Source: Geosiphon pyriformis uo1
Taxonomy: Eukaryota > Fungi > Glomeromycota
DNA length: 64,000 nt
Assembly (NCBI GenBank): GCA_016748015.1
Contig: JAAOMT010000664.1
Span: 2,023,870-2,087,869, forward strand
Reading direction: 5' to 3'
Shown in pieces: positions 1,853 to 64,000 of the stretch; within the stretch, counting starts at the first letter, position 1; each line of letters starts with the position of its first letter. The notes below the pieces were generated by a model that worked only from the letters and a program-made list of their open reading frames with translations, had not been told where the DNA came from and did not search any database. The position numbers and the translations under genes are program-made.

Positions 1853-2036
1853 CCAAACTTGGACACTTAATTTAACATTTTTATAACAATCCCTTTAATA
1901 ATACACAAAATGTAAAACAAAAATAGTAAATAATTACAAAAAACACCCAACTCCAAAAAACAAATAAAATCTTATATTCAAAAATTATTTTTTTTATTTT
2001 TTTTAAAAGTTTTATTTATTAGTTAGTTATTTTATT

Positions 2037-19800: not shown

Positions 19801-20560
19801 TTGCTGCTCTTGCCTTTTCTGTAGCCTGTGCCAAACTAGATTTAGAAGTGAAGGAAGCATGGATGATCTCAGAAAATTTTGAAAAAGTAAAGGCCTGTCT
19901 AAAACCATTGACTTTTGAAAATAATTTTCTAATCACCATCAGCTTTTCTTGAGAAAATTTTCCAACTACTTTATCCAAACCAATATCTAAAGCAAAAAAT
20001 TTTCTAACAGAAACAGTGATTAAATTTTTCAAGGGAGGAGGAAGTTCTAGAAGAGCATTTAAGAAAACATCATTATTATTATTACGACTTGAGAAATCTA
20101 TCTTCTTCAATGACTTGTCCAATGCTTTCTTAGTTTTGACACTAGGCTCTTTGGGCATCTGATCATGATTTCTATTAGCAAAATTGCCACTCTCACCATA
20201 GTTAAAGCTGGTTTTTTTACCAGACACTCTTCCTTTATATCAATGCTTTTAAACTCAGTAGTGTTACTAGTCTCAGAACTCCATAAATGACCACTTGGCA
20301 TCTTAGTAGGCACTTCTTTGCCATCAATATTCTCCTCTAAAATAACACTTTTTCTTTTCTTCCTTGACAAAACAGGCTTGAAATCCCACCTGAGCCAGAT
20401 TCTTTAACAACTTTCTTTATGATGACAATATTAAGGCCAACAATGGCCTTGAAATCAAAAAATGGTTTGGTTTTATTGTACTAAATGTTGAAAAAATATT
20501 TTTTAAAAACTCTTGACTTTTTTTTGGGAATTTGGAATAAATAAAAGAAAAAATTTTGTT
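13820..20560 (-). mobile_element. Full-length degenerate LINE, copy A (ORF1 ~20460-18626; ORF2 18626-13949: APE, RT, RNase H, C-terminal Zn finger)
   Basis: ORF1 knuckle CTGCEKLGHTSLAC; APE motifs CNIRG, TETKL, GGNFN; RT IPK..RPIVL, AFVNDMI; RNase H YTDGS; A/TAA-rich tail; many stops. Confidence 0.92.
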
Positions 20561-27400: not shown

Positions 27401-28200
27401 CAGAGTTTACTAAGATCTTTGCCTCTTCAGCCTTTTTAAATGCCTGTGCCAAACTTGATTTAGAAGTAAATATTGCTCTGACAATCCCAGCAAATTTTGA
27501 GAGGGTAGAGGCCCCTTCAAAACTATTGATTCTTGAAAACAATTTTCTGACAACCACAAGCTTTTCTTGAGCACATTTTCTAACAATATTATCCAAGCTG
27601 ATGTCCAAAGCAAAAGACTTCCTGACAGAAATATTGACCAAGTTCTTCAAAGGAGAAAAAAGAACCACAGATTTGTCCAAAAGTATATTATTAATATTAT
27701 CATCTAAGAAGTTAATTTTCCCTAGTGGTTTTCCAAGTGCCCTTTTAGTAAGAATCTTTAAACTTTTGGGTGTTTGCTCTGAGTTCTCTCTAGCAAAAGC
27801 TCTATCATCCCCATGATCAAAGCTGGTTTCCTCAATCAGACATTTTTCTTCCATATCCACACTATCAGATTCAGTAGTATTACTGGCTTTCAAACTCCAA
27901 GAATGACTACTTAACACCTTAGCAACAACAAATTTTCTATTACCAATATTATCCTTTAAAGCACCACCTCTTCTTTTCTTTCTGGACTCAGCAGACTTGA
28001 CACCAATATTAAAGCTAAACTCCATAACAGACCTGTTTAGAACCACAATATTAAGGCCAATGGTGGCCTCATAATCAAGCACAAATAGTTTGAAATTAGC
28101 ATACTGAATAATGAAAAACAGAAAAAACTTCTTTCAAAAAATATTTTGGCTTTTTTTCGGGAATTTGGGATGAACGAGAGAAAGAAGTTTTATTATATTT
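21487..28200 (-). mobile_element. Full-length degenerate LINE, copy B (ORF1 ~28082-26274; ORF2 ~26277-21623)
   Basis: CAGCRKLDHTSLFC knuckle; GGDFN, IDYV, TNH (APE); QGEMFSPLLW, AGAFVDNTIW (RT); FTDDS, TELQAI, SDSQ, VKGYSG, GNEQAD (RNase H); CLFCG..DHVFSC. (TAAA)n tail; candidate TSD GTTATTATTCT at 21476-21486 and 28201-28211. Confidence 0.94.
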
Positions 28201-36138: not shown

Positions 36139-39100
36139 TTTTTTTATTTGCTTTATGAATAAGATCCAAACACTACTTAACACTATACATCAAAGAAATA
36201 ATCTAAACTAGGCATAAATCATGCACTTTTTACACATAACCAGCCACTTGGGCTGATCAGAACAACACTATGCAGCTATGTGAACTGAAACTGAGTCACT
36301 TACACCTGAAAAAAATAAACAAAACTTTCAAAAACCAAAACAAACACTAAAGGCATCAGTAATGCCAAGCAATTTGACCACCCAAGCCAATAATCCTAAG
36401 GCCAAACCAGAAACTGAGATGAGAACTGAGCTATCAAGTGAAATCAACTCATATTTTTCCATATAAGCACAATGTTTAGCATGAACTGACCAGATATCAT
36501 TTCTAAAAGCAAGGCTAAGAGAGTGCTCAAATTTAACAATCTCCAAGCCAGCAACTTTGGGGTCATGAAAGACAGCAACCACCTTATAAAACCAACCATT
36601 AAAAACAAAATCCTTATAAAGAGCCATGGACAAAGATAAGTCAGAAGTACAAGATGACAAAAATTGCAATATGTCCAAAGAAGAATGAGTGAGACCAGAA
36701 ACTGCCTTCCAGGAATCCACATGAGATTCCAGCAACTGATGTCGAACAAAATCATCAATTCTACAAGAAAACACATGATCTGATGCCTCTACATTACCAC
36801 AATATAAGCACAATACACTTGGGTATAGTCTATTATAAAGATGCTTCTGAACAGCAACTGGCAGCTGGTGGTGCAAAGCTTTCATAAAATAAGTATGTGT
36901 ATTAGTTGAGGGTCTGCTGGTAAAACCAGCAGCCATGTGCAAGTTAGGATGTCATACCAAAGACAAACAGAACCAATCAACCTCAGAAAGCAAACTGCTT
37001 GCCAAAAACTTGGAATTAGAGCCAACCTCTCAGCACACACAACAAACTGAGCAATAAATATCATGAACAAAATATCTGGAATTGCCAGAAACAACACTAC
37101 CATCAGCCAACATAAAGTGTTCATCCAAGTGAGGAGGAAGATATTAATTAGAGAGAAAAGCATTACTGGCTATTATGTCTATATGCTCATTTCTTAAAAC
37201 ACCAAAATGACTTTTAACTTTATGCCAACTGACTCTTAAATTCTTACTGTGAATAACATTGACAATATAACAATGTTCAATCTAACACTGATTACGAAAG
37301 TCAGAACACGTCAGACCCAATTCTGACCTACAAGCATCCAGAGCAGATTGACTATCTGAGAACAATTTAACAAAGCTTAGTGAGAGGACACACTCCAGGA
37401 CTAGTGCAATAGCCTGCAATTCCACTAAAGTTGATAACATCAAACCTGATACACCAATACCCAAACTCACATCAATGTCTTTGAAAAAAGTGGCAGTACT
37501 AGCTTTACATTCGACTGTGTCCAAATTACTAAGGGACCTATCAGTGTACACCAACAAACTGTCAATATGAACTTGTGAGAGACAATCACAGATAGAAGCA
37601 AAATCACAAGATTCAAGAATGTTCAAAGAACCAACACTAATCAAAACTGAGGGATGAGTAAGAGAAAAACTTCTAACATTAAGAAACACAACAGAGAGCT
37701 TGAACTACTTAGGAACAGAGCCACAGAGGTCTAATCTCTTCCAATGCTTGAAAGTGTGCCAATCAAAGACAGAGCCATAACAATCACAAAGTTGATCCAC
37801 AAAGACAATACCATACTGCTGGAGAGAAGGAGAGAACTGAAGAAATTGGAATTTGCCCAGAACATTTAACATAAGGACCCTACCACGAAACCGAAAGAAA
37901 TTGGCCAAAGAGCCATCCAAGAACAAATTGCAATCAAGAAGAATGTGAATCATGCCCGCCAGAAAATTATTGGAAGCACTGACATGAATATGAATGGAAG
38001 AGCTCAATGGATAAACAGGATGCCAGCACAGAACTTGCAAGTTATGGAATCTGTAAGAGAATAAATAACCCAGGATATCATCAGAGTTTGCAAAACTAAT
38101 TAGAGAGGCCACCTTGTCTTCAGACTAGACTTGAAAGAAAGTCTTTAAACCATAAAAGGAGAGGTAATAAATTGTATTATTAGGAAAATCAAGTGGCAAG
38201 CCAGATTTAAGCTTTAAGGCTTTTTAAACCATAGCATCCCACTTGTTATACACACCAACAGAAACAAAACTGAATTGTGTCTTGTAACTGACTATAAGAT
38301 GGAGAACTGCTAAAACTAAATACAAAAGCTGCTTATCCAAGATAGCCTTTTTTAGAACCAAATTGGTGAAAAAACAAACATCCGAATTTGTTTTAGCCAT
38401 ACTAGGCTTTGAGAGACTCTCAATTGAGAGGAAAATACCTAAATACCAATGAGAATCACCCTTTTTTGCAATAGAGATCAGTAATCCACTAATGAAAAGA
38501 GAAGGATCATTGGTCCTGCTATTGATGGGAATTGCCACTGTCTTGTCATTATTAATAGAAATGTTATTGATTTGAAAAAATTCACCAGCAACATTAAGAA
38601 TGTGTTGGGTAGCCTTCTGACTGCTACCAACCCAAATTGTATCATCAATAAAGACATCAGCAGCAAAAAAAGAAGAAAGCCCAGCCTGAGACTTAGCATA
38701 ACCACTTTTGGAAATAAAATGAGAATTCAATTTATACCCATATATACTCTCCTAATGCTTGACTTCACACAATAAAAGGTCATAAAATATGCACCACAGA
38801 AGAGAAGAAAACATTTCTTCTTGGTTTAGACTATTATGCACATGATAACCACCTGTCAAACCAAAATCTGTCATAATCCTGTTGGTGCAATCTCTATGAA
38901 TACCACCAAAGAAACGAATGAACTTGCTGCACATTTTGATCCTAACCAAACTTTTCTCAAGATGTTTCCAGTCAACTGAATTGTATGTCTTTTACATATC
39001 TTGCAAAACCAGCCAAAGCTCTCAGTCCTTTTCCAAAGCATCCTCAATAACCAAACCAATAGCAAAAATGGGAGACTGAGTTAACATACCCTTCAAAACT

Positions 39101-42100
39101 GAAAAATTGTCCCCATAAAAAACATCAAAAGTGCTGTAAGCCAAAGAAATCCTGTTAGATAGTATCTTAGAAAGAATTTTACAAGCTGTCTTGATTAAAG
39201 CAATAGAATGAATATTTGTTAGAACACCCTCCCACTCATATGGTTTGGGAATTATTAATACCCAAGCTTCCTTCCAAGAACTGAACACAGATTCATTAGA
39301 CAAACAGGAATTTAAAAACACCAAAAGCATATCCAAAACTGACTTATCACAATGTTTTCAAAGCTCATTCAACACACCTAAGAGACCAATAGCTTTGCCA
39401 TTAGGTAAATCAGAAACTACATTAGCCAACTCATCAAATTCAATCAAAACTTCAGAAAAAGTCTCATTAAAAACATACTCCAATGGTCAATATTGGCAGT
39501 GCTATTCACTAGAAATATCATCCACCACTTCGCACTTCCTAGTCCAACTTTCCATAATCACATTCATCTTAGCCTTAACCAAATCAGGTTCCAAAATCAG
39601 ATTGTTATTAACCACCAGATGATTAAGTGCCACTTTGTGAAAGGAACATTCCAGCACACTCCTGATTGTATGACTCTTATTAATCTCAAAGCTTTTCATC
39701 CTTCTATCTATAGCTGATCTGATGTTTGCCTTCTTAGCCCTTAGAGATTCAGCAAGCTTGGCGGCATGATAAAACTTTCTAGCACCAAAGAGAGCAGAAC
39801 GGACATGATCAAATCCAGTGCCAGAGTTTACAATATCCTGAATAACTGAAGCCTTAACATTGTCCAAAAAAATTCAGTATTTCATAAGAGAATCAAAATC
39901 CACAATAATTTTTTCACGAGAGACCCTAACAATCTTAGAAACCAAAAGCTCTAACCTGTGAAACCTCGAAGATTTTTTGGTAAAAACATTATCAAAGCCT
40001 TTGAACCACTTCTTCTTAAACACCTTATTAACTGACAGAATCATTATTTTGCAAATGGCATTTCATATTGCATTCAGGTGTAAAAATCTTACAGAGGTAG
40101 TAAACACATTTGAGAACATTGCAGCATTGGCTGATGTAGCACCTTTGAAATTGTTCTATTTATTCTCATCAGCATCTTTGAATTCAAACTTCTACTGATC
40201 CTTATTTACTTGCTTTTCAAGAGAATTCAACTGCTCGTCCAAAAATCCACCCAAACTCACAGACATAAAAACAGCCTGATGGTCAGTATCAAAAAATTCA
40301 CCAACATCAGACACTTCGCAATCCACCACAGCATTGACCAAGTTCAAAAAAATGAACAAGAAATCAATAGTCTTAGCCATGCCCCAAGAGTTAGCCCATG
40401 TGGACTTTTTAACATAAGAACTTCCACCCAAAGAATTAACCAAACCAAGATCCAGACATTTTTTGAAACTAGTACTTCTTTGGAAGTCATTTTCATTGAA
40501 GTCACCACCTAAAACCACAAAAGAAGATTTATTGACCATTTTAGCTATCATAAAATTGATATCATTAGACTGAGAAAAACAAACAGCCAGGAATGCCCCA
40601 GCATAAAGCCCCAAAATTGACACAGAAAGTTTATTTTTGAATAACAGCTTGACTGAAAGAAGCCAACCAGACATCTCAGAAACCTTATTAACATGACAAG
40701 CTAGAGAAGTGTTCATAATAATCACAATTCTAACACCAAAAAAGCTCTTGTCCAACCCAAATGAAAAAACTCTGATATTATTGAACTTATCCCTAATCCA
40801 AAGCCTGTTGCTAAACCTCAGCTTAGTTTCTGTAATTATTGAAACCATATTTCCAGAATTCCTATGCCAATGGATAATGTTTTCTTGCTTGGCAGGGATA
40901 TTGATACCATGAACATTACACGTCACAAATTTTCACATGAAGTCACTCATTGGGGAGCAAAAAAAATTGATGAACCCAATCTCGAGCACAAACAATCCAA
41001 TTTTTCCAAAACAGATTCAACTGACATCTCCAAAGCCACTATCTTGAATTCTAATCCACCCACTTTGATGATCAAAACTTTAGAACTACTTGAACTTAGG
41101 TCAACTACTGAACCAGCAACAACTGAAAAAAGGGGAGAAAGCAATACCATCATATTATCAAGAACTATATCCAAGTCTATATTAGCTATAACAGATGTAA
41201 TAACAACTAGAAAAGAGACATGAAAACTGGATGCCAAAGGCACCAATTTCACAAAACTCAATTTTTTCAAAATACCCGAAACCTGGTTTGCTAAAAGCTC
41301 CAAAGAGCATTCCAGAGAAGCCAATCAATCAACCAAACAAGAATCACCAAGGGAGTTAAAAACCAATGGGACAGGTTTTACACCTGAAGATAAGCTAACA
41401 CTGGAATAATTTGATGAAACCATGCAAAAAAAAGAACTACTAGCCACCTGGGCCCAAGTTTTTTCTCCAAAAGAAACTGAACAAACAATTGGTGCTTCCT
41501 TTTTTATATATATGTTTGCCAAATGAACTCAATCCTAAGGAGTTACCAACTGCTTACCACAAGCACCAAAATTCTCACTCAATGAACACCTTGTAGAGAT
41601 ATGACCAAACTGTTTGCAATGAGCACAATAAGCCAAAAAAAGGCCAGCCCAGCACAAATTCACACTCTTAAACACTAGAATAGAACCAATAGCAGCCAAT
41701 TTGGATGCTTCATTGACAAAACACACAATCGCACATCTATCATACACATATGAGCTGGAATAATGGCTGATAAAGCAGATCTTTCCACCATATGACTCCA
41801 ACAAATTAGAAAGATTATGAGCTGTTGTGCCAACTGGAAGAGTATAAAGTATTGTCTGATAACAATCTCTTTTTACCCACAATTTCTTGTCATTCACTGC
41901 CAATACAACACAAACAGAATTTTTACTCATGAGAACTGACTATTTAGAAGCAACCAAGCTAGCCACATCTGATGACTTAAATTTCACTAAAGCTTTTTGC
42001 CAAAGCCCAATCAGTTGCATCCTAATCAAAATTACTTAACCAAATTTAGAGAACACTGACTCATTTGCTGATCTGGAAAGATCCACTGGAATCTCCTTGA

Positions 42101-42332
42101 CAATTACCTTCTGATTTGAATGGCTGTTTACCTTCTTTAGGATCATTATTAACAATAATTTTCTCACAGATTGCCAATTCCTTTGCCTTTTTCATACTGA
42201 ACTCAGATATAAATAAAGCTCTGATAATCTCTGGGAATTTTGAGGGAGTTAACGCTCTCCCAAAACCATCAATTCGATAGAAAATTTTTTTAATAGCAAT
42301 TAACTTATCACTATTTGTTTTTCCAGATATGG
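36139..42332 (-). mobile_element. LINE copy F, 3' part (ORF2 40950-36268; ORF1 C-terminal part 42332-40947)
   Basis: TCNVHG, TETKL, GGDFN, IDFL, TDH (APE); VFIDDTIW (RT); YTDRS, VELQAI, SDSQ (RNase H); CLYCG..DHVFSC; ORF1 CAHCKQFGHISTRC. Confidence 0.94.
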
Positions 42333-43266
42333 TATTACCAGTAGAATTTTAGCTATTAATTAGCATGAAATTACCCTTATAATTCCTATTATTAATTAGT
42401 ATACATTATTATTAATTTGATTATCAAATATTATTACTCAATTAATAATCTGATTTGTACTTTAGAAATTAAGATGATCAAATTACACAATACCCTGAAC
42501 CTTTTAACATAGTCAAAATTCGCCGAAATTAATGGAAATTGGCCGAAATAATCAATAGTTCAGTGAAATAACTTGTAAATTTGCCAAAATGTATCTTTAG
42601 TTCACCCAAATTGTAGCAAAAAGAAAAGTGCAAGTTCAAAGACTAGTACTACAACAAGTTGTATAAAAGAAGAGCTTCTCTTTTCAAGAAAATGTATCTT
42701 CTCATAGTATCTTACTTTAGATATCTTAATTAAAACAAATCACCTTTTACAAAATCAAATAAAAATTAAATATTTGAAAACCAAATTCTAAATTATTACA
42801 CTTGAAATTCCCTCAATACAACTAACGTTTTGAAATTGATTAGCTACCAATTTCAATAAACTGTTAATGACTCCAGGCCTGGATAGAAAACATTTTCATT
42901 GACAAAATTCTATTTCTTTTATGTTTCTTTTATTTTTCTTTTATTTTCTTATTACAATCATTAGGATAGTCTACAAATAAGATTCCTGTAGAAGAGTTGA
43001 CTTTCACAGCAAAGTAACTACACATTTTAGTGAGCTTTCAGATGAGCAATTCCTGGGAAAGAGTTGATGTTTACTACAACATAACTACATAAAGTAACTG
43101 GCAAGGAATCAGTCATTCCACTTATAAGCCTAACAGTTCAAATTATAGGAGATAATTTGAAGATAAATTCAGTTACTGGAGGTCTAACTACTTCCTGGAA
43201 ACGTGAATTCACAGCAAATCAACATTACCAACATTTAAGAAAAGAGACCAAAAATTTCCAGTAACA
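42333..43266 (+). repeat. 5' LTR (934 bp)
   Basis: TATTACCAG..CCAGTAACA (decayed TGTTACCAG..CTGGTAACA); direct repeat of 51221-52189; TATA-like GTATAAAAG at 42661. Confidence 0.95.
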
Positions 43267-43285
43267 TTTAGTGCTCTTCTACAAA
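43267..43285 (+). promoter_or_regulatory. Probable primer-binding site (TTTAGTGCTCTT.., likely decayed TGGTGCTC..)
   Basis: Immediately after the 5' LTR; needs one G>A reversion to give TGG, complementary to tRNA CCA. Cognate tRNA not determined. Confidence 0.5.
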
Positions 43286-43311
43286 AATAACACAGCAATA
43301 ACAAATTCAAA

Positions 43312-45300
43312 GTGGTGACCACACCAGACACAACAACTCTAGAGTATCATCAGTCAATTTATACCCACTGCAAGCAAAGATTCAACATTTCAGACGGAAT
43401 TGAAGTTGTCAAAAAATCAGTATACCAATACATTGAAAACTGCATCAACAATTATCTTTTTGGAAACTACAACATTTCAGAAGTTAGAAGCAACCTCTAC
43501 AATAATTTAGTGCACTATTCACAATTGAGAACAGAAGACCTAAACAGTGAAACACTTGCTATCTACTTTCAAGAACTTAATTTTAATATTATTGAGTATT
43601 GTGAAAAAAAATACCCAGTACAGCCCAAATACTCTTTTAACTTTGAATCAGAAACAGAGACAAGCAACAAAGGCAAACAAAAAGTGAAACAATACTCAAA
43701 AACCACTTCAAACACTCCAATACTATCAAAGACAACTGCCAAACACTTGCAAACACCTGAACAAGAAACCAGTGTCAAATTACCACTTTCTATTACACCA
43801 TTTCCAATTTCACTTGTTCAATCACAAATACCAAGTTCACCACTTAACCATTTCTCCAGACCAGAAGATTTTCAGTTATCTAGAAATCCTACTCAACAAC
43901 AAGAACCAATATTAACAAATGCTAATATTATTGATTACTTACAGGAAAACGAAAGTAATCATTCAAAAAGCTTGGAAAGTGAAGAAACTAAATCAGAACC
44001 AGAAGAAATCACAGGAAATAAAAAAGAAATAACAACTGTTTACATTGCAAAAATTCCAGAATTCACTGATGAAGACAATGATACCAGTTCTCAAGAATGG
44101 CTTGACAAAGTTTAAAAAGCAGGAGATGCAAATGGTTGGATTGTAGTAAGAATGCTCAAAGCAATTCCCTACTTTTTTCAAGGAACAGCAGAAGAATAGT
44201 TTGAAAATTTAGAAGAACCATTTGAGAACTGGCAAGCATTCAAAGATGCTTTTTTACAACAATTTACTAACAACAACACCTCTATCACTCTCCGCAATCA
44301 CTTTCACAATATCAAACAAGAAACATTTAAAACTGTCATGACTTATCTTGAAAGATTCAACAAACTTCTTTGACGAATTCGATAATTAAAAACCAATGAC
44401 TACTATTCTAATGCTCAGATTCTGGATCAGTTTATAGCAGAATTAAAAAACAAATTGATTAAAAAAGTCTGTCCACATGCACCAACAGACTTAGCAACTG
44501 CCATAAGACATGCAAAGAACTATGAAATAGCTATGGAAAAAGCAAACCACACCAAATTCATCAACCTAGCTATTAGAAAAACCAGTTCAGCAGCTGAAGA
44601 AAAAATAGACCAACTTACAAAGAAGATTGAAAGCTACTTCACAAACCAACAACAACAGCAACAACAACCACAAAAATATCAACCCCCACAATAATACAAC
44701 CAAAACAATTTTGGATTACCATCCAACAACCAACCTCAAAATTGTTATTATTGTGGAATTCCAGAACACTGGAAACGAGATTGTAGGAAATTACAAAGAG
44801 ACCAACAAAACAGGAGTAATTAATATTACTCTTCACCACAACAATCTTATTACCAATCTCCACTACCAACCTATTATTTACCAAGACCACAAAATCAAAA
44901 CAGTTACTATTAACCAGTTTCACAACCAATGCAATAACAATATCAGCAATCTTTACCAATTCAGCCATATCAGACACCACCCACTTAACAATATCAAGTA
45001 CCAGCAAGAAGATTGGTTTAACATAACCAATTCACACCCCAAAATTAATTTCAGAATAACAACAACAGAATCAATCCAAATAACCAGTTGGTTCCCCGAA
45101 ATTCTGGTTAGCAAAGACCCAATCACTATTACACTCAACCCAGTTATCTTACAATATCAGAAGAATCGGATTTTCAACAACCTGCACTTTCTGAAGGTGA
45201 AGTTGCAGCACCAAAATCAAATCCTTCCAACAATACCATCTCACCAGCTTAAATTGCCCAAAATGCCAACCTTTCAGATATCTTTCTATTCAAATTTGAA
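43312..45300 (+). pseudogene. gag: gag (N-terminal extension, capsid, CCHC nucleocapsid, Q/P-rich linker)
   Basis: KIPEFTDED..QEWL..ANGW..WQAFKDAFLQQF..IKQE..V.TY..RF capsid; CYYCGIPEHWKRDC at 44743-44784; same frame as the protease; stops are mostly CAA>TAA or TGG>TAG. Confidence 0.9.
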
Positions 45301-45318
45301 GCCAATGAATCACCATTC

Positions 45319-45720
45319 TTGCTTAATAATGCAGCAACTAATGAACAAAAAGCTATTACTGCCATGTACACTAAAGCTACAGTAGAAGGAAAACCCATTC
45401 GACTAATTCTAAACAGTAGATCAGCTGGAAGTATTATCACTTACCAGTTAATACAACAGCTTCAAAGAACTGTTGACAGACCAGCCCAAACTGTAATTGT
45501 TACAGCAGATAATATGAAAAAGGCACCAGTAGAAGAAATTGATAATTTCCCATTCACCATTAATGAATTACCATTCCAGTCAAAGTTCTAGTCATGGATG
45601 CACCCCAATACCAAGCTCTGGTCAAAAATGATTGGCTTCTTAAGACCAATGCAAACTTAAATTAGGAAACTCAAGAACTAAAAATCTCATACCAAAGACA
45701 ATACACTATAGTACTTGTTA
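45319..45720 (+). pseudogene. Retropepsin-like aspartic protease
   Basis: IRLILNSRSAGSII (decayed ILDSGS), IVTAD, ALVKNDWL (decayed LVGNDWL). Confidence 0.85.
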
Positions 45721-46654
45721 CTTGTGGTACTTTTAACAAATGATCAGAAAAAGCCCCAGTATTTGAATTTGAAGAGGAGAAAAAAATGCCACTTACTGAA
45801 ACCTATATGGCTCTTAGATCAACATTCAATTGGGCTGAAGAAACAGAACAGGAGATTTTTGAAGAATCAAGAGGATAGAAAAAAGTTAGATATTCTACAC
45901 CAGAACCACGGAAACAACCATTCTATATTCTACTCAAATGCAAAGATTGCAACAAGAAACTTTTATCAATGAGAGCATATATTTCTCCAGAAGAGAAATA
46001 TGAAACTCATACTTGTTACTTTTGCAAAGCATACCATAGAGAACGATTTGGATCTCCAAAAAGAAGTGGAAAATGGGACAACACATCTTGCCTTACATGT
46101 GGAAATATGTTACCAGAAGAATGCAACTGAATTGATGTTGCAATAAGAGGAGAAGTATGTGATCAAACCTGTCAATATGCTCTATCAATTTCGGAAAAAG
46201 TCAGAAGAGGAACACCATTTGATGCAGTATACAACAGTACTCTTAATAAACTTTACTACTACCCTCATGATGCTGAAATGATTTTTGACTTAGCAATAGC
46301 ATTAATTAATAGAGCCACCCAAGAAGATGTTCACCAAATAAAAGAAGCTGAATACATTGAGTATACTATGGAATTAGCTGGATTTGATTATGAAGATGAA
46401 GTAGAAACCTACCACCAAATTGCAAGCCACACATATCTGACTCAAGAAGCTTAAATTTAACAATTAGAACAAATGAACATTTAATTGTGTAAAGAATACA
46501 TCATGCCTTGTGATAACAAATGGTGTTCAGAATGCTATGCTCTTAGCATTTTCCTGTCAGAGGAAAATAATAAAAATGAAATCGAATTTGGAGTATCTGA
46601 ACTGGTAGAAAAATACCAACCACCCCCATCTATCTTCTTGAAAAGCAACCACCT

Positions 46655-47086
46655 CTACAACTTAAATATTTCAACAACCATGGCCAAGGAATCAGACCAG
46701 AAAAAGCACACAAAATTGATGCTGGATATGACCTAAAATATTCAGGAAAAAATACTTTAGTTCTCCAACCAAAGTCCTTGACAAAAATCAATCTCAAAAT
46801 TGCTCTTGAAATTCCACCTGGAGCAATGGTTTAAATTGCATCCAGATCATCATTGACAAGTAAAAAAATCAATGTTAAAAGAGAAGTTATAGATGCAGGA
46901 TATACTGGAGACATTACTATCATGTTACAAAATGAAACAGACAAACCATTCAGGATTAAACATGCTGAGAAAATTGCCCAAGCAATTTACTTATCTCTAA
47001 TCAACATTTCGAGGTTATAATCAGTTAAAAACAGAGAACAATTGGGAAAAAGTGAAAGAGGAACTCAAGGTTTTGGTTCAATTGGA
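46655..47086 (+). pseudogene. dut: dUTPase domain within Gypsy pol
   Basis: Frame not in the ORF track: DAGYDL (46718), ASRSS, VIDAGYTGDI (46886-46915), KIAQ, SERGTQGFGSIG (to 47086), i.e. all five dUTPase motifs in order. Two CAA>TAA-type stops; in frame with RT. Confidence 0.95.
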
Positions 47087-47579
47087 CGATTTACAGTTCC
47101 AGTAAACATAGCTCTCAATACATAGAATGAATCTCACCAGATTCTTCAACTTCCCCAACCAATTATCATTTCATCTTTTGGAGAACATCACAAAATTTAC
47201 ACTTGCTCAAAACCCACCACTACCCAACAAATCTTTGAATCCAATGAACAAATCTGTTTAAAGCATGAAATCTCAATTTCAAATGTTTATATTCCCAAAG
47301 GAATAAAAAAATTCCAAGTTATATTCTACAATCGCAATAATTACCCCATTGTTTTATTGAACAAACTAGATATTGGAATCATATACAGTAACATTTTTCA
47401 AAATGAAAACCCTCAAATTGTTTTTAATTTCATCGAAATTATAAGACATACACTACTTCCAAATCCAAATATCATTTCTACCACTGAAAACTACCACCTT
47501 TTGAAAAAAAAACTTTCTCAAATTAACATGGGTCTCTTGGAACTCCAACAACAAAGACAATTGAAACAATTGATAGCTG

Positions 47580-48934
47580 AATTTGCAGATATATTTGCAA
47601 AAGACAACAATGACTTTGGAAAAACAGATATTGTTTAATACCAAATTCATACAGAAGATGCTCCATCAAAATGACAACAAGCCTATTGAGTTTCACCTGA
47701 TAGCCACCAATTTATTAGAGAAGAGGTCCAAAGAATGCTCAATAATGGATTGATTCAACCATCAAGAAGTCCATGGGTTTCACCAATAGTTCTTGTTAAA
47801 AAGAAAAATGGAAAAATCAAATTCTGTATTGATTATCAACAATTGAATAGTGTCACAATTGGAAATGCCTACCCTCACCCAAGAATTGATAACATGTTAG
47901 ATGCTTTAGGAAAAGCCAAGTTTTTCTCAACTTTAGACTTGGAAAGTGGATACTGGCAAGTCAAAATGGACCCAAAAGATAAACCCAAAACAGCATTCAC
48001 CACTCAAAAAAGAAACTATAAATTCAATGTTATGTCTTTTGGACTCTGCAATGCACCAGCAACATTTTAGTGACTTATGGATGTTGTCTATGAAGGACTC
48101 TTATGGCAATTAGTAGTTGTCTACCTTGACAACACTAATGTATACTCACCAAGCTTTGAAGCTCATCTTATCTACCTACGAGAAGTTTTTCAACAATTAT
48201 GAAAAACAAAATTAAAGTTAAACATTGAGAAATGTCATTTTGGAAAAACAAGCTTGATCTTTCTTGGACACATAGTTAGTAAAGAGAGAGTCAAACCAAA
48301 TCCAGGAACAATCAGTGCTGTCAAAAACTTTCAAACTCCCAAAAATACCACAAAATTATGAGGATTTGTAGGATTAGCCTTCTACTATCGGAAATTCATA
48401 AAGGAATTCTCAGAAATTGCCAAACCACTCAATTATCTTACCAACAAAAATGTGCCATACAAATGAACAGAAGAACAACAAAAAGCTTTTGAAATCCTCA
48501 AAACAAGATTGACAACAGCCCCAGTTCTTGCTTGCCCAGATTTCAACAAACGGTTTCAACTAGCCACTAATGCTTCACACATAGCTTTTGGTGCTATCCT
48601 ATCACAATTAGATAAAAATGGCCAGGAACAAGTTATTGCCTATGCTAGTAGAACACTCAAGCCAACAGAACTCAAATATGGCTCAACAGAACTAGAAGCT
48701 GCTGCAGTCATTTGGGCTCTCAAATACTTTCAACAATACCTAAAGAATAGAAAAGAGTTTGACATCATAACTAACAATATTGGCCTCAAATGGCTCAATA
48801 AAAATAAAAAAGAACAAAGTGCCAAACAGTCTTAATGGAATAATTTTTTAGCAGACTACAAATATATAGTACATTACAAACCAAGAAAACTACACACCAA
48901 TGTTAACAGCCTTTCAAGAATGAGACAATATTAA
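47580..48934 (+). pseudogene. pol: Gypsy reverse transcriptase and RNase H
   Basis: SPWVSPIVLVKKKNG..FCIDY, LDLESGYWQV, KTAF, FGLCNAPATF, YLDN at 48122-48133 (decayed YLDD), FLGH; RH ATNASHIAFGAILSQ, ELEAAAV, NVNSLSR. Confidence 0.95.
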
Positions 48935-49001
48935 TATCAACATCAACACTAACAAAACACCAACAAACTTAACAGCAGAACAAATAACAAAATCAACAAC
49001 A

Positions 49002-50351
49002 ATGGTTTCAGAAAACTACAACAACATCAAAAACTATTTGGAAACTCTCACCATGCCAGAAAATTGGTCTTTAAGTGAAAAACATCGATTACAACACCAA
49101 TTCAAACAATATTTTATACACTACAACAAAATCTATTACAAGAATCATAGAAATCCAAACCAATCACTCAGATTAGTACAAAAGAATGAAAAAGAAACAA
49201 TCTTATACAACATGCACACAGATCCTTCTTCAGCACACTTGAGAAGAAATAGAACAATACAAAGAACTCTTAAACATTACTTTTGGTCTCAAATGCAAAA
49301 AGACATTCGACAATATGTAAAATCTTATAATAGTTGTCAAAGAAGAAAAGGAACTTGCCCCACAGAACCTTTAAATCCAATCAAAGTTGGACAATTTTTT
49401 GACAGAATTGGAATTGATTTAGTTGGACCATTACCTATTACAACTCAAGGAAATTATTATATTGTAATTGCAGTAGATTATTTTACCAAATGGCTTGAAG
49501 CTAGAGCCATCCAAAGAGCAAATGCAAAATCAGTAGCAAATTTTATCTATGAAGACATTATCTGTAGACATGGATGCCCAATTGAACTTTTATCTGATCA
49601 AAAAACACATTTTGTGAACAACTTGATACAAAAAATTTGTGAACAATTCAATGTCAAAAGATCTTTATCATCATCTTATCACCCCCAAACAAATAGACTT
49701 GTAGAACATTTTAACAGAATATTGTGTGAATTTTTAGCCAAAGTCTCAACAGATTTTGAGCAGAAATGGGATATCTTTATTCCATCAGTGTTACTAGTAT
49801 ATAGAACACTAAAACAAGATACTATAAAACACACACCATTTGATCTTACTTATAGAAAGACAGCAACATTACCAATTAATTTCACAGTGAAAACATACCC
49901 TGTGCAACCAATTAATGAAGAGAACTTTCAAGAAACACTTCAAAGAAGGCCTACACTCTTCTTAGTACACTGGAAGAAAAAAGAAGAATAGCAGCAACTC
50001 ATATTGAATATTCTCAAGCTCAACAAAAAGAAAGACATAACAACAAACTACCACTCATAATCAATGAATTTAAAGTTGAAAATAAAGTTCTCTTACACAG
50101 AACTAAGGCTGAAAAACAATGGAGTGGAAAATTTGAAAACAAATGGGATGGACCATTTTATATTCACAAAATTCTAGGCAATAGATCATACAAGTTAAGT
50201 CTTGATGACAAAGTATTAGCAAAAGTTGCACATAGAGATAGATTAAAACAATCCTGAACCATTAATTCTACAAATTGGTACACATTCCCCTTTAATTAAT
50301 CCTGAAAATATTCCCCGAAATTTAGAACCAATAATTATAATAGAACAATAA
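49002..50351 (+). pseudogene. Gypsy integrase with GPF motif, no chromodomain
   Basis: H..H zinc-binding region, IGIDLVGPL, VDYFTKW, SDQKTHF, YHPQTNRLVE; frameshift near 49950; KWDGPFYI at ~50141; ends LEPIIIIEQ*. Confidence 0.93.
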
Positions 50352-50532
50352 CCAAACTTGAACACTTAATTCAACATAATTTTACAATAATCTTTTTAAT
50401 AACACACAAAGACAAAAATAGTAAATAATTACAAAAACACCCAAAACCCAAAAACAAATAAAATCCCATATCCAAAAAAAAATAATAATAATTTTTTTAT
50501 TCTCCCTTTTTTATTAATTAGTCAATTTTATT

Positions 50533-51186
50533 ATGATTATTCCCCGAAATATTCAACAAATATCACAAAAATTAATGTTAGCCTTGAAAACACTTTTTGA
50601 CTTATTCATAATGATTAATAGAAGTCAAATTAATTACATTCAAAAAAAAACCACAGCCCCAATAGTAAATAATTCTCAGAACTATTACTCTTATAGAAAA
50701 AAAACAAAAGATCACTCTAGAAATAGGTTACCAGAACTTTTGAAGCAAGCACTAAAAGAAAATTTTTTAATTGCCCCTATTGACATTTCACCAAATACTA
50801 CAATACAACAAAAACTTCTACTATTCCTCAATGAACAGAACAATAAACATACTCTTATATATAGATATTTTCATATTAGAAAAACACTTTACAAACGAAA
50901 ACTGGAACTTGAAGCAACTAACATCACTTCTAAGGCTATACAAAAACAAATTCACAATGAATTTAAGACAGCAGCTGGATCAACAAACACTTACTACAAA
51001 CTTAGAGCAGCTTTTAGACTTTATGATTTATTTACCATTTGTAAAAACATCTTACAAAATCCAATACTCCAACCAATGAAAGTTCAATACATTGGAAAAC
51101 TCACAGAACTGAAATTTCAACAATTTTCAGACCAAATCACTTCAATTATCTTGGACCACTATCTTAACATTACAGATAGTATTTAG
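50533..51186 (+). CDS. Extra 3' ORF (ORF3) of Gypsy element, unknown function, 217 aa
   Basis: Open ATG ORF between integrase and PPT; conserved in copy 1 (2037-2733). Confidence 0.75.
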   Translation: MIIPRNIQQISQKLMLALKTLFDLFIMINRSQINYIQKKTTAPIVNNSQNYYSYRKKTKDHSRNRLPELLKQALKENFLIAPIDISPNTTIQQKLLLFLNEQNNKHTLIYRYFHIRKTLYKRKLELEATNITSKAIQKQIHNEFKTAAGSTNTYYKLRAAFRLYDLFTICKNILQNPILQPMKVQYIGKLTELKFQQFSDQITSIILDHYLNITDSI

Positions 51187-51220
51187 ACTTCAACAGAGCT
51201 CAGTCTTGAGGAAAAAATTA

Positions 51221-52189
51221 TGTTACCAGTAGAATTTTAGCTATTAATTAGCATGAAATTACTCTTATAATTCCTATTATTAATTAGCATACATTATTAT
51301 TAATTTGATTATCACTTATTATTTAATCAAATTATCAAATATCATTACTCAATCAATAATCCGATTTGTACTCTAGAAATTAAGATGATCAAATTACACA
51401 ATACCTTGAACCTTTTAACATAGTCAAAATTCGCCGAAATTAATGAAAATTCGCCGAAATAATCAATAGTTCAGTGAAATAACTTGTAAATTTGTCGAAA
51501 TGTATTTTTAATTCACCCAAATTGTAGCAAAAAAAAAAGTGCAAGTTTAAAGACTAGTACTACAACAAGTTGTATAAAAGAAGTGCTTCTCTTTTCAAGG
51601 AAATGTATCTTCTCATAGTATCTTACCATAATATCTTACTTTAAATATCTTAATTGAAACAAATCACCTTTTACAAAATCAAATAAAAATTAAATATTCG
51701 AAAACCAAATTCTTAAATTATTACATTTGAAATTCCCTCAACACAACTAACGTTTTGAAATTGATTAACTACCAATTTCAATAAACTGTTAGTGACTCCA
51801 GGCCTGGATAGAAAACATTTTCATTGACAAAATTCTATTTTTTTTATGTTTCTTTTATTTTTTTTATTTTCTTATTATAATCATTGAGGTAGCCTACAGA
51901 CAAGATTTCTGTAGAAAAGTTGACTTTCACAGCAAAGTAACTACACATTTTAGTGAGCTTTTAGACAAGCAATTTCTGAGAAAGAATTGATGTTTACTAC
52001 AACATAACTACATAAAGTAACTGGCAAGAAATTGGCCATTCTACTTATAAGCCCAGCAGTTCAAATTATAGGAGATAATTTGAAGATAAATTCAGTTACT
52101 GGAGGTCCAACTACTTCCTGAAAACATGAATTCACAGCAAATTAACATTACCAACATTTAAAAAAAGAGACCAAAAATCTCTGGTAACA
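51221..52189 (+). repeat. 3' LTR (969 bp)
   Basis: Perfect 9-bp terminal inverted repeat TGTTACCAG..CTGGTAACA; preceded by the PPT. Confidence 0.97.
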
Positions 52190-52903
52190 ATGGCAAACAA
52201 CTCAACATCCAATGCAAATGATTTTACTAACTCAAAGCTTTTTTTTCCAAAACACGTGACTTAACAGGCAGCAGCTGATTGGACCCAACAAATCTAAACT
52301 CAAGAAGCACTATTTCAGTGTCACCATTACTCAAGTTTTTGAAGAATGGTGTTTTCAGCAGCTGTTTCAAGACATAGGTTCTTGTACACATTTTCTTAGA
52401 AGTCACATTGTCCATCATGTCATCAGTCTCAGAAGCATTAAAGTCCATATAACTTGTCTCTTTGGCTACCATGTTGTTTATGTTCTCAATGTTGGATATT
52501 TCACTGATGCTAGCATCTTTACTCTCCACCTCACTACCCTAAGACACCTTATGTTTGTCACAATCATTCTGTAAAACGTGGCCAGGAAGAGGTCTGGCTA
52601 ACAAATCCACTACCACACCAGTAATATCAGGTTTTTTTGATTTTTTGTAAGAGAGACCCCAAGAGTACACACTCTCAATGCACGCTTTCTTTTTAGCAAT
52701 AGCCCAAGATCCCAATTCAGCCAAGCCAGAACCAGAACCACCAACAGAAAAGCCCACTGGATCCATTACAACAAAATTGGGTACGTTGGAAGAAATAACT
52801 AAAGGTAACAAGAAGGAAGGAAAAAGAAAACACTATATCTTTGGCAGTACAAAAACTTTTGTCATGGTCAGGAGATTGACAAGGGAAAGTTTTTTATTTT
52901 TTA
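52190..52903 (-). mobile_element. LINE copy F, 5' part (5'UTR and ORF1 N-terminus)
   Basis: Removing the Gypsy plus one ATGG restores FALDVELFAISGKTNSDKLIAIKKIFYRIDGFG, colinear with FALDIGLDKVVGKFSQEKLMVIRKLFSKVNGF of copy A. Confidence 0.92.
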
Positions 52904-59880: not shown

Positions 59881-60904
59881 AAAAAATATTAAACACTTTT
59901 ATAATATATTATATAAAAAAACTAACTTATAAATTATTAAATTATTATTATTATTATATTAAAATACATATTAATATTTTGTTTGATCTTTATTTGCTTT
60001 AAGAATAATTTGAACTTAATATAACATAAACTTAATCAAATTATGATAGTAATTTACAAATATTGTATCCCATTTTTTCTTAATTTACTATTTTAATTAT
60101 ACAATATTTAAAAATTGTAAATTATATTAATGAATTTTAACTTCAATATATGATTAAAAATTTTTTTTTAAAGTAATATTAAAATTTTGTGCTGGCCAAA
60201 ATTTTATGGTGTATAATTTCAATAATATAATCAACCAAAGGAATTAAAAAACCCAAACCAATCCATAAAAAACATCTCTAAAACATATAAACAAAGTTTT
60301 TTTTAATTGTGGCTGTAATACAATTCTTATAAAACTTTTTAAGAAGTTTATGTTATATATGTTCAAATTCTGTAATTCTAAATTGTGTATATGTAAATTC
60401 ATCTGACTAAACAACTTGTTTAAAATTTTTTACAGTCCAATTTTTATAAGTACAAGTCTATTATAAATGGTTTTTTTATTTGATTTAAAAATTAATGACT
60501 TAAAATAAAAAATACATAAACAAAATTTTTTTTAAACTAATCTATTTTAAATAGTTTATATAAAATTAGATTTGTTAATATTTTTAATAAAATTCAATTA
60601 TATTTGAAAAAAAGTTTGGCAGTAAATTTTTTTATTCTCTATTATTGAATATTTGAATTGTTTATATGTATATTTGTTAAAATTTGTGGTTGGTCTGTTT
60701 ATTTTTTAAGAAATTTTTTTAATTTATATAATTTTTATATATATATTACAGAAAAACATAAATATTTAATAATCATAAAAATTTTACTGTTTGTATGTTC
60801 TAACTTTTTTGTTGGTATTCAGAAAGTTTTTTTCTAAAACATATTTAATATAATAAACTTTTTTATAACAAAAATGTTTAATATTTTATATATATATATA
60901 ATAG

Positions 60905-63900
60905 AAAAAAACTTCTTTCTCTTCTTCATCCCAAATTCCCAAAAAAAAGTCAAAGTTTTTTTGAAAGAAGTTTTTTACAATTCAGTACAATAAATTCAAA
61001 CTCTTTATTCTTGACTATGAAACCACTGTTGGCTGCAGTATTGCTGTTATGAAAAAGACTACTAAGATTTTTAGTTTTAATAATGGCTTTAAACCTGTTC
61101 TTCCAAGAAAAAAGAGAAGAGGTGGTGTTTTAGAAGATGGTTCTAGTGGTAAGAGCATTGGTTCTAAGGTTCAAAATAGCTGTTCATGGGGTTCAGAAAC
61201 TGGTGACATCACTAAGTCTGATAGTATTGATATGAAAAAGAAATGTCTGATGGAAGAGACCAGTTTTGATTATGGTAAAGATGATGTTTTTGCTAAAGAA
61301 AATCCTGATCAGACACCTACTGGTTCAAAGATCAAAACCAAAAAAGCATTAGGCAAGCCATTGGGTAAGATAAATTTTTCATTTAGTGACATTGATGATG
61401 ATGTTCTTTTGGATGCTCTATTGGAACTCCCCCCACCTCTCAAAAATCTGGTCAATATTTCTGTTTACAAATCTTTTACTTTGGATATTGAGTTGAATAA
61501 GATGGTTGGGAAATCTTCTCAAGAAAAACTACAAGTGGTCAGGAGATTATTTTCAAAAATCAATGGTTTTGGGAGGTCTTTACCCTTTCAAAATTTGCTG
61601 GAATCATTAGAGCATTGTTCACTTTCAAATCAAGTTTGGCATAGGCTTCCAAAAAAGCTAAAGAAGTGAAAATTCTGGTGAACACCAATCTTCAGAAGTC
61701 TTCTAGATGCTCAGATTGGACTGTGGTAATAAAAGAAATTCCTGTTGGTACTTTGGCTGAGGCTGTGTGTGCCGCGTTATCCGAGTTTGGAATAATTAAG
61801 TTGATCAAAATACAATTGGTGGGGCTATGACAGAAAACAGTGGTAGAATTTGAATGGGTTAATCATGTTGATTTGGTCACAGCAAAATGGTCTATCCTAA
61901 TTGGGAAAGATGCAGTACATGTTGCTAGATTTAATATGGACAAAGAAACCTGAGATGAAAGAGATGTTCACAGGGCTCTTTTGTACACTATACCAGTAAG
62001 AACCAATGTGCATGATATTTGGGATTATATCAACTTAGTGGGTAGAAAAACATGCACAATCAATCATTACCCTGTTATATATGCTTGGGCCAGATGTGCC
62101 ATTGTTTGTTTCAAATCAGCTGAATCCTTGGATGCTGTCATAAATACTACTTCAGTTCTAAAAAGCATAAATCTGCATTGGTCTTGATTGGGTTTTTCTA
62201 AATGTGCTGAGTGTGGGAAAATAGGTCATATGTTATTGAGTTGTTCTGTAGGTGAGAATTTTTCTCCTAGTAAATCTCCTCGTAGAGTGCTTTCAGATGT
62301 GGATAAAAACAGACTGGCTGTCATCTATTCCAAGTATTCGGCTCTTATTGCTCATTCTGTTGCTTTTGGTGGGATTTTTTGGGCAAAGATTGCTAGTAGA
62401 TCTTTATTCCCTCCTCTTTCTGTGAAGAATAATTCGATCAATCCTGGCTCCTCTTCAGAGATAAAGCCTACTCTTCCTGTTGCTTTTAATGTTGAAAAGA
62501 GGTTTGCTGTTTTGAAAAGCAGTCTTATTAGTCTCACAGAACAGATTAGTGAGTTGGCTAAGAGGTTGAACTCACTTGTTCTGGCAGTTTCCCAGCCTAG
62601 CCCTAGATGTTAGCTGCTGATAACCCTCCCATCACAGAATCAAGTGGGTGATATAGTGATGGGAGAGGGCTCGAGTGTGGCCACTAATGGTAAAACTGCT
62701 GCACTTCTGAAATCATTCTCTTCTCCTAACATGGTTAAGTTTAAAACTATGTTGGAAGGTCTTTCTGCTTTTGTTTTGAGTTTGTCAGCCCATCTTGATA
62801 GTTTGGTCTTAACTGGTAGTGTGCACTCCCAATCTCCTTCTCAATAAGTGAATTAGTCTGGAAAATTGTGATGTGTAATGTCAGAAGCATGAATAATCCT
62901 GCAAAACAGAAGGATATTGTGCATTGACATATGAAATCTGGAAATATGGTCTCAATTGTTACTGAAATGAAATTGAAGTCTGATTGTAAACCATGGATTA
63001 TAAACAAGTTTGATGGTGTTAGAATTTTTTCATTTGGTGTAAACAAAGGGTTTCTTGGAACTGGGGTGGCCATTATCATGAACAATTCTCTGGCTTGTCA
63101 TGTTTCTAAAATTGATGAGATCCTTGGTCAGGTTATTTCAGTATGTCTTTTCTTCAAAGGCAAACTCTCAGTTATGGTTCTGGATTTGTATACTGGTGCA
63201 TCCTCTGGTATTAGGTTTGGTCAGGCTATAGAAGTCAACTCTTTTATCACAAGAGTTCTGAACTTTAATACTTTTGTGGTCTTAGGTGGTAATTTTAATA
63301 AAGACAATTTTAAAAAAAGTGCAAGTTTTAGGTTTTGTTTGGATCTGGGTTTGGCCAACTTATTTGGTACACACTCATTGATCAAAGCTCCTATGTGAAG
63401 CAATTCAAGGGGTGCTGAAAAAACAATTGATTATATTTTTGTCAGTGATAATTTGTCTTTGGCAGTTGCTGGTTAGATTGTGGCTTCTGTTTCTGATTAT
63501 TTTAACACTAACCACAAGGCTGTTATAATGTCAGTTGGTCTGGGTGGGCTTTTGGATGTTCATCTAAATGGTTTGCGCAAGCAAGCTAATAAAGATTGAT
63601 AAAAGTTCAAGATTACAGATGCAGATGGTCTCAAATAAACTTGTTTTAAAGAGTGTTCTTTAGTTGAGTTTTCTTTTGTAGTTAATGAGTTTTTGGTTGC
63701 TAGTGATGATGGAGATTTTGATTCTATGTGGTCTTGTTTGGTAAAAGTGTTGGTCAATTCAGCTGATGAAGTGTTTTCTAGACATTGGTTTCATGAGATC
63801 AAATGTTCTTCCAACAAACAATCTTCAAAATTTTTTAAGCTGAAACTCCTGGTTGCTAAATTGGTGATGTTTCTTTAATCTGGTAATGCTTTTAGAACTG

Positions 63901-64000
63901 GTTCTCTTCTCAATGCTTGGCTGATTGCTGATGAATATAAGGCTCTTGAGATTCGAGACATGTTGAATGATGGTGTCAGCAGCAAGGATGTTTTTGTTTG
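60905..64000 (+). mobile_element. LINE copy G, 5' part (ORF1 ~61049-62847; ORF2 APE from 62844, runs off window)
   Basis: 5' motif CATCCCAAATTCCCAAAAAAAAGTCAA shared with copies A and B; CAECGKIGHMLLSC; CNVRS, TEMKL, GGNFN, IDYI, TNH. Confidence 0.93.

Follow-up and report, generated by a model that had tools for sequence, protein, structure and literature searches.

The window analysed here, a 64,000-nucleotide stretch of a Geosiphon pyriformis contig, carries at 42333-52189 an element with paired long terminal repeats (LTRs). It is probably best explained as a decayed, high-copy Ty3/Gypsy element with a separate integrase (IN) gene, likely expressed by stop-and-restart, and a non-envelope third gene. 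Based on Pfam matches to the window proteins, with the LTR pair determined by BLAST, the following features were mapped.

42329-42332, no strand: 5' target-site duplication (TSD) ATGG, identical to the four bases at 52190-52193
42333-43266, plus strand: 5' LTR, 934 bp, ending ...CCAGTAACA (BLAST LTR pair)
43267-43285, plus strand: degenerate primer-binding site (PBS), TTTAGTGCTC... (sequence inspection)
43291-45370, plus strand: gag, with capsid at 44164-44541, CCHC knuckle at 44740-44790 and a Gln/Pro/Asn-rich linker
45373-45730, plus strand: aspartic protease (PR), catalytic Asp changed to Asn in the window copy, frameshift near 45560-45590
45822-46600, plus strand: Cys-rich insert, predicted to bind zinc, core at 45939-46535
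46697-47080, plus strand: trimeric-type dUTPase, five motifs all recognisable
47795-48277, plus strand: reverse transcriptase (RT) core (Pfam and solved-structure matches)
48467-48934, plus strand: RNase H (RH), terminating at a family-wide TAA at 48932-48934 (Pfam and sister-copy contigs)
48935-49001, plus strand: RH-IN spacer, 67 nt, CAA-rich and AUG-free (58% A, 27% C, 2 G), unstructured
49002-50351, plus strand: separate integrase open reading frame (ORF), with H2C2 at 49176-49349, DDE core at 49413-49685 and GPF/SH3 at 50084-50233
50533-51240, plus strand: ORF3, 235 aa, predicted soluble helical protein, one premature stop in the window copy
51208-51217, plus strand: polypurine tract (PPT) GAGGAAAAAA, 3 nt 5' of the LTR
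51221-52189, plus strand: 3' LTR, 969 bp, TGTTACCAG...CTGGTAACA (BLAST LTR pair)
52190-52193, no strand: 3' TSD ATGG, matching 42329-42332
1-3682, plus strand: second, more decayed copy with RH, stop, IN, ORF3 and a 3' LTR from 2714 (BLAST)

The LTRs were 90.3% identical by BLAST; of the 55 substitutions found over 930 ungapped columns, 53 were transitions. Their termini are TGTTACCAG..CTGGTAACA, the start of the 5' LTR having decayed to TA. The order LTR-PBS-gag-PR-Cys-dUTPase-RT-RH-stop-IN-stop-ORF3-PPT-LTR given in the initial annotation was confirmed by Pfam, BLAST and sequence, the PBS being degenerate; in relatives this site begins with TGG and lies directly 3' of the LTR. The 4-bp TSD (ATGG on both sides) and the lack of a chromodomain were also borne out, no chromodomain being matched in the Pfam search of P0006 or of the intact relative P0247, and the integrase ends about 40 aa past SH3. 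Pfam matches were Retrotrans_gag (1.3e-10), Ty3_capsid and zf-CCHC (6.8e-05) in the gag region; a weak Asp_protease_2 (0.065) in the protease, whose LILD motif was kept in 12 of 13 motif matches among family proteins; dUTPase (1.8e-19), RVT_1 (9.7e-29) and RT_RNaseH (1.9e-31) in pol; and Integrase_H2C2 (2.4e-15), rve (2e-12) and SH3_Tf2-1 (7.6e-05) in the integrase. The best solved-structure matches of RT-RH were 4ol8 (E 1.7e-83) and the Ty3-G Gag-Pol 7q5b (E 1.3e-81). No Pfam family was found for the Cys-rich part, ORF3 or the gag N-terminal domain. The gag frame is open back into the 5' LTR, the integrase stop is at 50349-50351, and ORF3 runs over the PPT to terminate 20 nt inside the 3' LTR.

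The window copy is dead: stops interrupt the frame at 34 of its 2,500 codons, and the frame shifts four times, twice within the integrase. Apart from the RH terminator, the 14 stop positions covered by family proteins most often read Gln, Trp, Arg or Cys in those proteins (14/14). The repetition of the 3' half at 1-3682 described in the initial annotation was recovered by BLAST (2-3680 against 48508-52177, 83.6% identity), with the same RH stop, IN and ORF3 present. Decay of both copies (42333-52189 and 1-3682) was dominated by transitions, which fell in CA, CT and CC contexts, and CpG had been depleted beforehand; CpG observed/expected was 0.13 in the element and 0.63 in a neighbouring host gene. 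The decay of the window repeats looks like a repeat-induced point mutation (RIP)/methylation-like process.

Among 472 sister-copy contigs over 48885-49060 (bin depth about 52,000-69,000), the TAA at 48932-48934 had no other letter at 2% or above, whereas C made up 97%, 98% and 96% of the depth at 48937, 48950 and 48985, respectively, where the window has private T's. Met occupied the column of ATG 49002 in 92 of the 120 best integrase relatives, and lay within -25..+15 of it in 116; these were the best 120 of 781 relatives from JGI, ENA and Logan, with 43-60% identity, four of them named Rhizophagus. A metagenome scan, in which 80 of 237 loci were kept, gave 27 loci (L numbers) with both RH and IN, comprising 16 split into separate ORFs, eight fused as RT-RH-IN and three with IN before RT. 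Identity to the window integrase was 34-51% for the split and 31-35% for the fused loci. An unbroken integrase ORF of 399-523 aa was present in 10 of the 16 split loci. L024, flanked by 435-bp LTRs, is complete and carries RT-RH and IN on separate ORFs; L053 has the window layout, PR-insert-dUTPase-RT-RH / IN / ORF3, in unbroken frames.

The gap between RH and IN ranged from -8 to 727 nt over 18 junctions, which fell 3, 6 and 9 in the three frames (three in frame); these come from 15 of the 16 split loci and from L014, L018 and L023, for which tblastn did not confirm an RH in the upstream ORF. The variable length of the gaps and their spread over all three frames exclude a single conserved readthrough or frameshift. 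The second window copy has a 57-nt spacer and an integrase in frame with RH. The window integrase begins at a YPYY-like motif (judged by eye) and contains KWDGPF. Based on these comparisons, the RH-integrase stop is not decay and the integrase is read as a separate Met-started gene, which the initial annotation had proposed only as a possibility and which is the most important feature of the element. A split architecture of the element family is very likely.

The integrase tree, built from the window, 13 of the 16 split loci, three Rhizophagus proteins, the eight fused and the three IN-first loci, placed the split and Rhizophagus rows on one side with support of 100/98; L030, L036 and L042 were left out as decayed or short. 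The RT-RH tree contained the window and 11 of the 16 split loci, five having too little RT. Both trees consist of loci and Rhizophagus proteins only, with no named GyDB or Repbase clades as references. A single origin of the split lineage is plausible from these trees.

The active ancestor would have made one Gag-PR-Cys-dUTPase-RT-RH polyprotein, since other copies read through the checkable breaks of the window from the protease to the start of RT; single Gag-PR-...-RT-RH ORFs occur in relatives L013 and L053. Ribosomes ending after RH would restart at the integrase ATG on the genomic RNA, a route for the window family to which about even odds are given. Termination-reinitiation, a route that fungal victoriviruses use, is indicated by stop/start overlap at 4 of the 18 junctions (L005, L021, L053, L023; TAATG in L005, ATGA in L053, and -8), by IN/ORF3 overlap in L009, L016 and L053, and by spacers without an ATG at 9 of the 14 non-overlapping junctions. 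Restart would set the amount of integrase below that of Gag and RT, and a free integrase, which would lack a Gag tether whether made by restart or from a subgenomic RNA, may bind RNA or RT in the particle or meet the cDNA after uncoating. By analogy with proposals for other elements that carry the enzyme, the dUTPase would prevent uracil from entering the cDNA.

RNA structure at the RH-IN and IN-ORF3 junctions was not above that of shuffles (z 0.26, -0.40, -0.08). A common hairpin was observed directly 5' of the integrase ATG at L013:4455-4506 and L018:575-629, with compensatory changes (GTTCG/CGAAC versus GTTTG/CAAAC); the RH-IN gap of L013 is 62 nt. It is absent from the window family and is a candidate cis element for integrase initiation in these two relatives. 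In addition, an in-frame stop lies between protease and RT at L008:870-873, L021:1585-1588 and L024:3358-3361; Gag-PR terminates there and RT goes on in the same frame, which would be an uncommon position for readthrough or restart.

The five dUTPase motifs are all retained among family proteins, and a second dUTPase was undetectable in the segment that follows (E 0.12-0.58). The initial annotation counted the dUTPase as an unusual module; its position between PR and RT had in fact been described already, in passages on Postia PosPlaTy3-5 with mention of earlier reports from Phanerochaete and Tuber (PMC2864245), on rotifer elements (PMC5408684) and on planarian Burro (PMC6431247). The Cys-rich region, put at about 300 aa in the same annotation, is real, with a Cys-bearing core of about 200 aa (45939-46535) in an insert of about 270 aa. 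Its motifs run CxxC, CxxCxxC, CxxC, CxxxC, a helical block with HxxH, and CxxCxxxCxxxxCxxC. Cys is the majority residue at 16 positions and Tyr the usual alternative, as expected from G-to-A decay. The spacing suggests three or four zinc sites, and the insert is most likely a zinc-binding module that would be cut from the polyprotein. It was homologous to a second Geosiphon family only; neither the insert between PR and dUTPase in L053 nor the tails that follow RH in L013 and L024 were related to it. Pfam and PDB gave no match for the domain, and the predicted fold was poor (pLDDT 45.7). The split lineage seems to tolerate different inserts around RT-RH. Long tails with Cys/His clusters were also seen after RNase H at L013:3500-4441, L024:4950-6705 and L018:2-544; these have no Pfam match and are unlike the window Cys insert.

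Searches gave 205 relatives of ORF3 and 258 of the Cys-rich domain, the best 120 listed for each being G. pyriformis 'hypothetical proteins'. From sequencing run X1, 72,301 contigs aligned to the element and covered all 30 bins. A dUTPase was found on 51 and protease sequence on 18 of the 120 Cys-domain proteins listed, and, by eye, locus tags no more than two apart link a Cys-domain protein with an ORF3 protein in at least 18 cases. Because relatives are family-wide and modules co-occur on proteins or at neighbouring loci, the extra modules are features of the family in G. pyriformis and not copy-specific insertions, the outcome that would have undone the initial annotation. It also suggested that the same architecture be sought in other Glomeromycota: intact integrases on their own ORFs occur in Rhizophagus irregularis (P0253, P0317, P0318), and the listed relatives of the Cys insert and ORF3 are all from G. 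pyriformis. A search of viral contigs gave no relevant match. As all 240 listed ORF3 and Cys-domain relatives are G. pyriformis proteins, automatic annotation has very likely already recorded the family among the repeats of this genome. Passages of PMC11952901 put LTR sequence at 41.2% of the genome and give the abundance of its LTR/Gypsy expansion; ORF structure is absent from these passages.

The ORF3 family comprises two subfamilies, both read through the PPT into the 3' LTR, 38 and 40 of the 120 listed proteins, respectively, ending in LTR-encoded tails. None of 85 near-full members exceeded hydropathy 1.5 in any 19-residue window, none contained a furin motif (0/85 each), and no transmembrane segment or signal-like hydrophobic stretch was found; in 14 further ORF3s of relatives the maximum hydropathy was 1.29. 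The near-full members had a median pI of 9.2 and a median of four N-x-S/T sites. The predicted structure (pLDDT 61 overall) has a confident helical core at about residues 80-170. Foldseek searches of PDB and BFVD with the model returned nothing at E<=0.001 (best VIA Z 5.6, to unrelated helical proteins), and the sequence gave no Pfam family, no PHROG below 0.001 and no PDB match. A profile search of 1.84 billion representatives returned 35 proteins; the eight looked up were six from G. pyriformis and two from metagenomes, the latter with the same C-terminal PPT-LTR tail. Ten of 11 ORF3s of split relatives were mutually homologous in leave-one-out tests, the set matched the window family profile weakly (probability 86.6%, E 4.5e-06), and 8 of 8 tested members beat 500 shuffles, narrowly. 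Five split-type relatives (L005, L008, L017, L023, L033) run from IN straight to the PPT or have no ORF after IN, so ORF3 is optional in the lineage. The sequences and the model indicate that ORF3 is not an envelope protein; a soluble nucleic-acid-binding helper, which would be made from a downstream cistron, is the best guess, and a weak one. The Atlas features of the L013 ORF3 pointed to closterovirus coat and RegA-type repressor clusters (0.92, with only 130-138 of 256 features shared) and serve as a lead only. A DNA motif directly 5' of the PPT was common to the window (51191-51220), L006, L016, L018 and L029; read in different frames, it yields two ORF3 endings that recur, FAGAQ and SQELSLEEE.

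The four modules had been presented in the initial annotation as one package. They come apart across the relatives, in which the split integrase is lineage-wide, ORF3 optional, and the dUTPase and Cys-rich insert family-specific.

With canonical Ty3/Gypsy elements (Metaviridae, ICTV profile PMC7879559) the window element shares TG..CA LTRs, a PPT, a Gag with capsid and CCHC, the PR-RT-RH-IN order, an RT nearest to Ty3-type structures and a GPF/Y-SH3 integrase tail. It differs in an integrase outside pol, a third ORF that is not Env and a Cys-rich insert plus dUTPase between PR and RT. Judged by the features of the Metaviridae, the LTR pair with TSD, PPT, Gag capsid/nucleocapsid, PR-RT-RH-IN order and Gypsy-type RT were found, and an integrase encoded within pol was not. 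The element is a Ty3/Gypsy variant and not retrovirus-like. The initial annotation had called it retrovirus-like, with an ORF in the env position; that ORF3 has neither a transmembrane segment nor a furin site and is modelled as a small helical protein. A chromovirus was rejected for want of the C-terminal integrase chromodomain, and an errantivirus or other env-bearing element for want of an ORF3 transmembrane anchor or furin-type site (0/85). Other dUTPase-bearing Gypsy elements (PosPlaTy3-5 of Postia, Phanerochaete, Tmt1 of Tuber, rotifer Juno/Vesta/TelKA and planarian Burro) have, in the passages describing them, the dUTPase likewise between PR and RT; unlike in the window element, their integrase is described there as lying inside pol. 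The Postia set comes from a chromovirus survey (PMC2864245). The rotifer elements resemble the window element in having no chromodomain and non-env ORF3s; the ORF3s given in passages of PMC5408684 are GDSL, DEDDy, transmembrane or coiled-coil proteins, none of which was matched in the window Pfam search.

Troyka, as described in passages of PMC12440569, shares LTRs and the PR-RT-RH-IN order and is known from animals only. It was rejected on its CG..CG termini and 3-bp TSD, as against TG..CA and 4 bp in the window, and on its single Gag-Pol with IN and no GPF/Y, as against a separate IN with KWDGPF. Ginger1/GIN1, according to passages of PMC2836005, likewise has a free-standing integrase of about 400 aa with YPYY, H2C2, DDE and GPY/F, TGT termini and a 4-bp TSD; Ginger1 also has 40-270-bp terminal inverted repeats (TIRs), CCGG/CCGT targets and no RT, Gag or LTRs. 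The window integrase, in contrast, lies inside a full LTR retrotransposon with the TSD ATGG, and the LTRs, RT and this TSD rule against Ginger1 itself. L062:7266-8722, a related integrase without RT in 11 kb and with a repetitive C-terminal tail, was checked as a possible Ginger1 and had no clear TIRs. In the full-text literature no Gypsy clade with a separate integrase was found, Repbase, GyDB and supplements, which may hold such families, being outside the search. A separate integrase ORF was likewise absent from passages of PMC3248453, PMC6839031, PMC10224137, PMC2582038, PMC13468544, PMC10508981 and bioRxiv 2021.03.30.436303. The free integrase is a real departure that runs through the lineage; the dUTPase position is known already.

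A number of points weigh against a separate integrase made by stop-and-restart. The split and the proposed restart are read from DNA sequence, and the split loci come from metagenomes. The contig check of the TAA covers one genome, and the run is possibly the window's own source; the search for integrase relatives admitted only lengths of 180-576 aa, which kept fused forms from being recovered. The fused L041, on a long branch (1.97), falls inside the split group of the integrase tree, a split-only clade was merely not rejected by the approximately unbiased (AU) test (p-AU 0.339), and the RT-RH tree supports the split group at 60/83 only. Restart after an ORF of about 1,900 codons is inefficient in eukaryotes, and the stop and start of the window family do not overlap (67 and 57 nt). 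Simple restart cannot explain L008 (365 nt, 7 ATGs), L024 (727 nt, 12 ATGs) or L025 (521 nt, 8 ATGs), because these spacers are long and full of upstream ATGs; a subgenomic RNA is the more plausible route there. For ORF3, homology across the lineage is weak (9-14 bits against shuffle maxima of 7-10), that of L053 falls short of significance (4 of 200 shuffles scored as high), and pI values from 5.3 to 10.1 weaken the nucleic-acid-binding guess.

The long spacers of L008, L024 and L025 would be accommodated if the integrase (and ORF3) of a split element were made from a subgenomic RNA, spliced or from an internal promoter, as foamy-virus Pol and the products of most ORF3/env genes are made from subgenomic RNA. 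A pyrimidine run followed by AG directly before the ORF3 ATG in both window copies is in keeping with this, as is the statement, in passages of PMC5408684, that ORF3s of LTR elements typically come from spliced messages. The window RH-IN spacer, however, has no pyrimidine tract, and the stop/start overlaps in L005, L021, L053 and L023 and the IN/ORF3 overlaps in L009, L016 and L053 are typical of translational coupling, so that this route appears possible and rather unlikely. An ordinary one-Pol Gypsy element, with an RH-integrase stop that is decay or is bypassed by readthrough or frameshift, might be suspected in a copy riddled with transition-made stops (34 in 2,500 codons), the more so as the integrase of the second copy is in frame with RH and 3 of the 18 junctions are in frame. 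The TAA is nevertheless invariant in sister copies, Met stands at a single column in 92 of 120 relatives, the spacers differ in length, frame and sequence, and 10 relatives have unbroken separate integrase ORFs; this explanation is highly improbable and largely refuted already.

The same small probability or slightly less attaches to a retrovirus-like infectious element with ORF3 as an envelope or fusion protein. The env position, the 205 relatives family-wide and the N-x-S/T sites would suit it; the lack of a hydrophobic anchor and furin site in 85 members and of anchor-level hydropathy in 14 more, a length of only 93-235 aa with a helical model, and the absence of ORF3 from five split relatives speak against it. 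A chimera, compared by published description only, would be an integrase-less LTR element with its own integrase start because a Ginger1-like transposase gene had been captured. In its favour, a YPYY-like motif stands exactly at the integrase start, and the H2C2, DDE and GPF/Y set, the TGT ends and the 4-bp TSD are as in passages of PMC2836005. The same passages, on the other hand, place YPYY in Athila/Tat, Cer1 and other Gypsy integrases, no TIRs surround the window integrase, and the same split elements come together in the trees of RT-RH and of integrase, which would make any capture ancient; a chimera is improbable. Somewhat less improbable, and still speculative, is that the separate integrase belongs to a three-cistron deep Gypsy lineage of arbuscular-mycorrhizal-type fungi, is made by stop-and-restart with no Gag-Pol tether and possibly an ORF3 helper, and, with its YPYY motif, TGT ends and 4-bp TSDs, is the missing LTR-element source or living intermediate of Ginger1/GIN1. 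If true, the link would address the question, left open in passages of Bao et al. 2010 (PMC2836005), of how the integrase of a Gypsy element turned into a DNA transposase.

In textbook accounts, LTR retrotransposons and retroviruses package integrase as Pol's tail. A widespread lineage in which integrase has its own gene must control the amount of the enzyme and its loading into particles in some other way, and the intact relatives L013, L024 and L053 make this directly testable. A split lineage would explain the stand-alone 'integrase core' proteins of about 420 aa in proteomes of mycorrhizal fungi, as well as hundreds of 'hypothetical' genes that are actually element ORF3s. Tools needing an intact RT-RH-IN frame would miss split elements.

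Among the relatives, L024:1-9888 is apparently intact, with LTRs 96.8% identical, a gag-PR of 951 aa, a stop and an RT-RH with a tail of about 590 aa, followed by IN (427 aa) and ORF3 (230 aa). Four tandem 28-bp repeats, partly palindromic, lie in the presumed LTR of L053 (6810-6949). A gag N-terminal domain with H..CxxC and FxxFW, for which there is no Pfam family, was seen in several relatives:

L001:3226-3783
L009:2501-3214
L013:6804-7436
L024:505-900
L032:3147-3508

Within the LTR, an ORF containing a hydrophobic stretch had no Pfam match and is broken in both LTRs. The element was inserted into ORF1 of a minus-strand element resembling a long interspersed nuclear element (LINE); the left flank aligns with ORF1 of a different LINE copy as far as the insertion site, and one contig of run X1 joins both flanks with the insert missing. 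At least four decayed LINE-like elements, with ORF1, endonuclease-like, RT and RNase H-like frames, were observed in the window:

36300-42332 and 52190-52900, minus strand: decayed LINE-like element hosting the Gypsy insertion in ORF1
13900-20500 and 21500-28200, minus strand: further decayed LINE-like elements
60900-64000, plus strand: further decayed LINE-like element

An intact host ORF of 528 codons is present at 9482-11068 on the plus strand; by eye it resembles an F-box/leucine-rich-repeat protein, with only a weak Pfam match to FTH (0.053).

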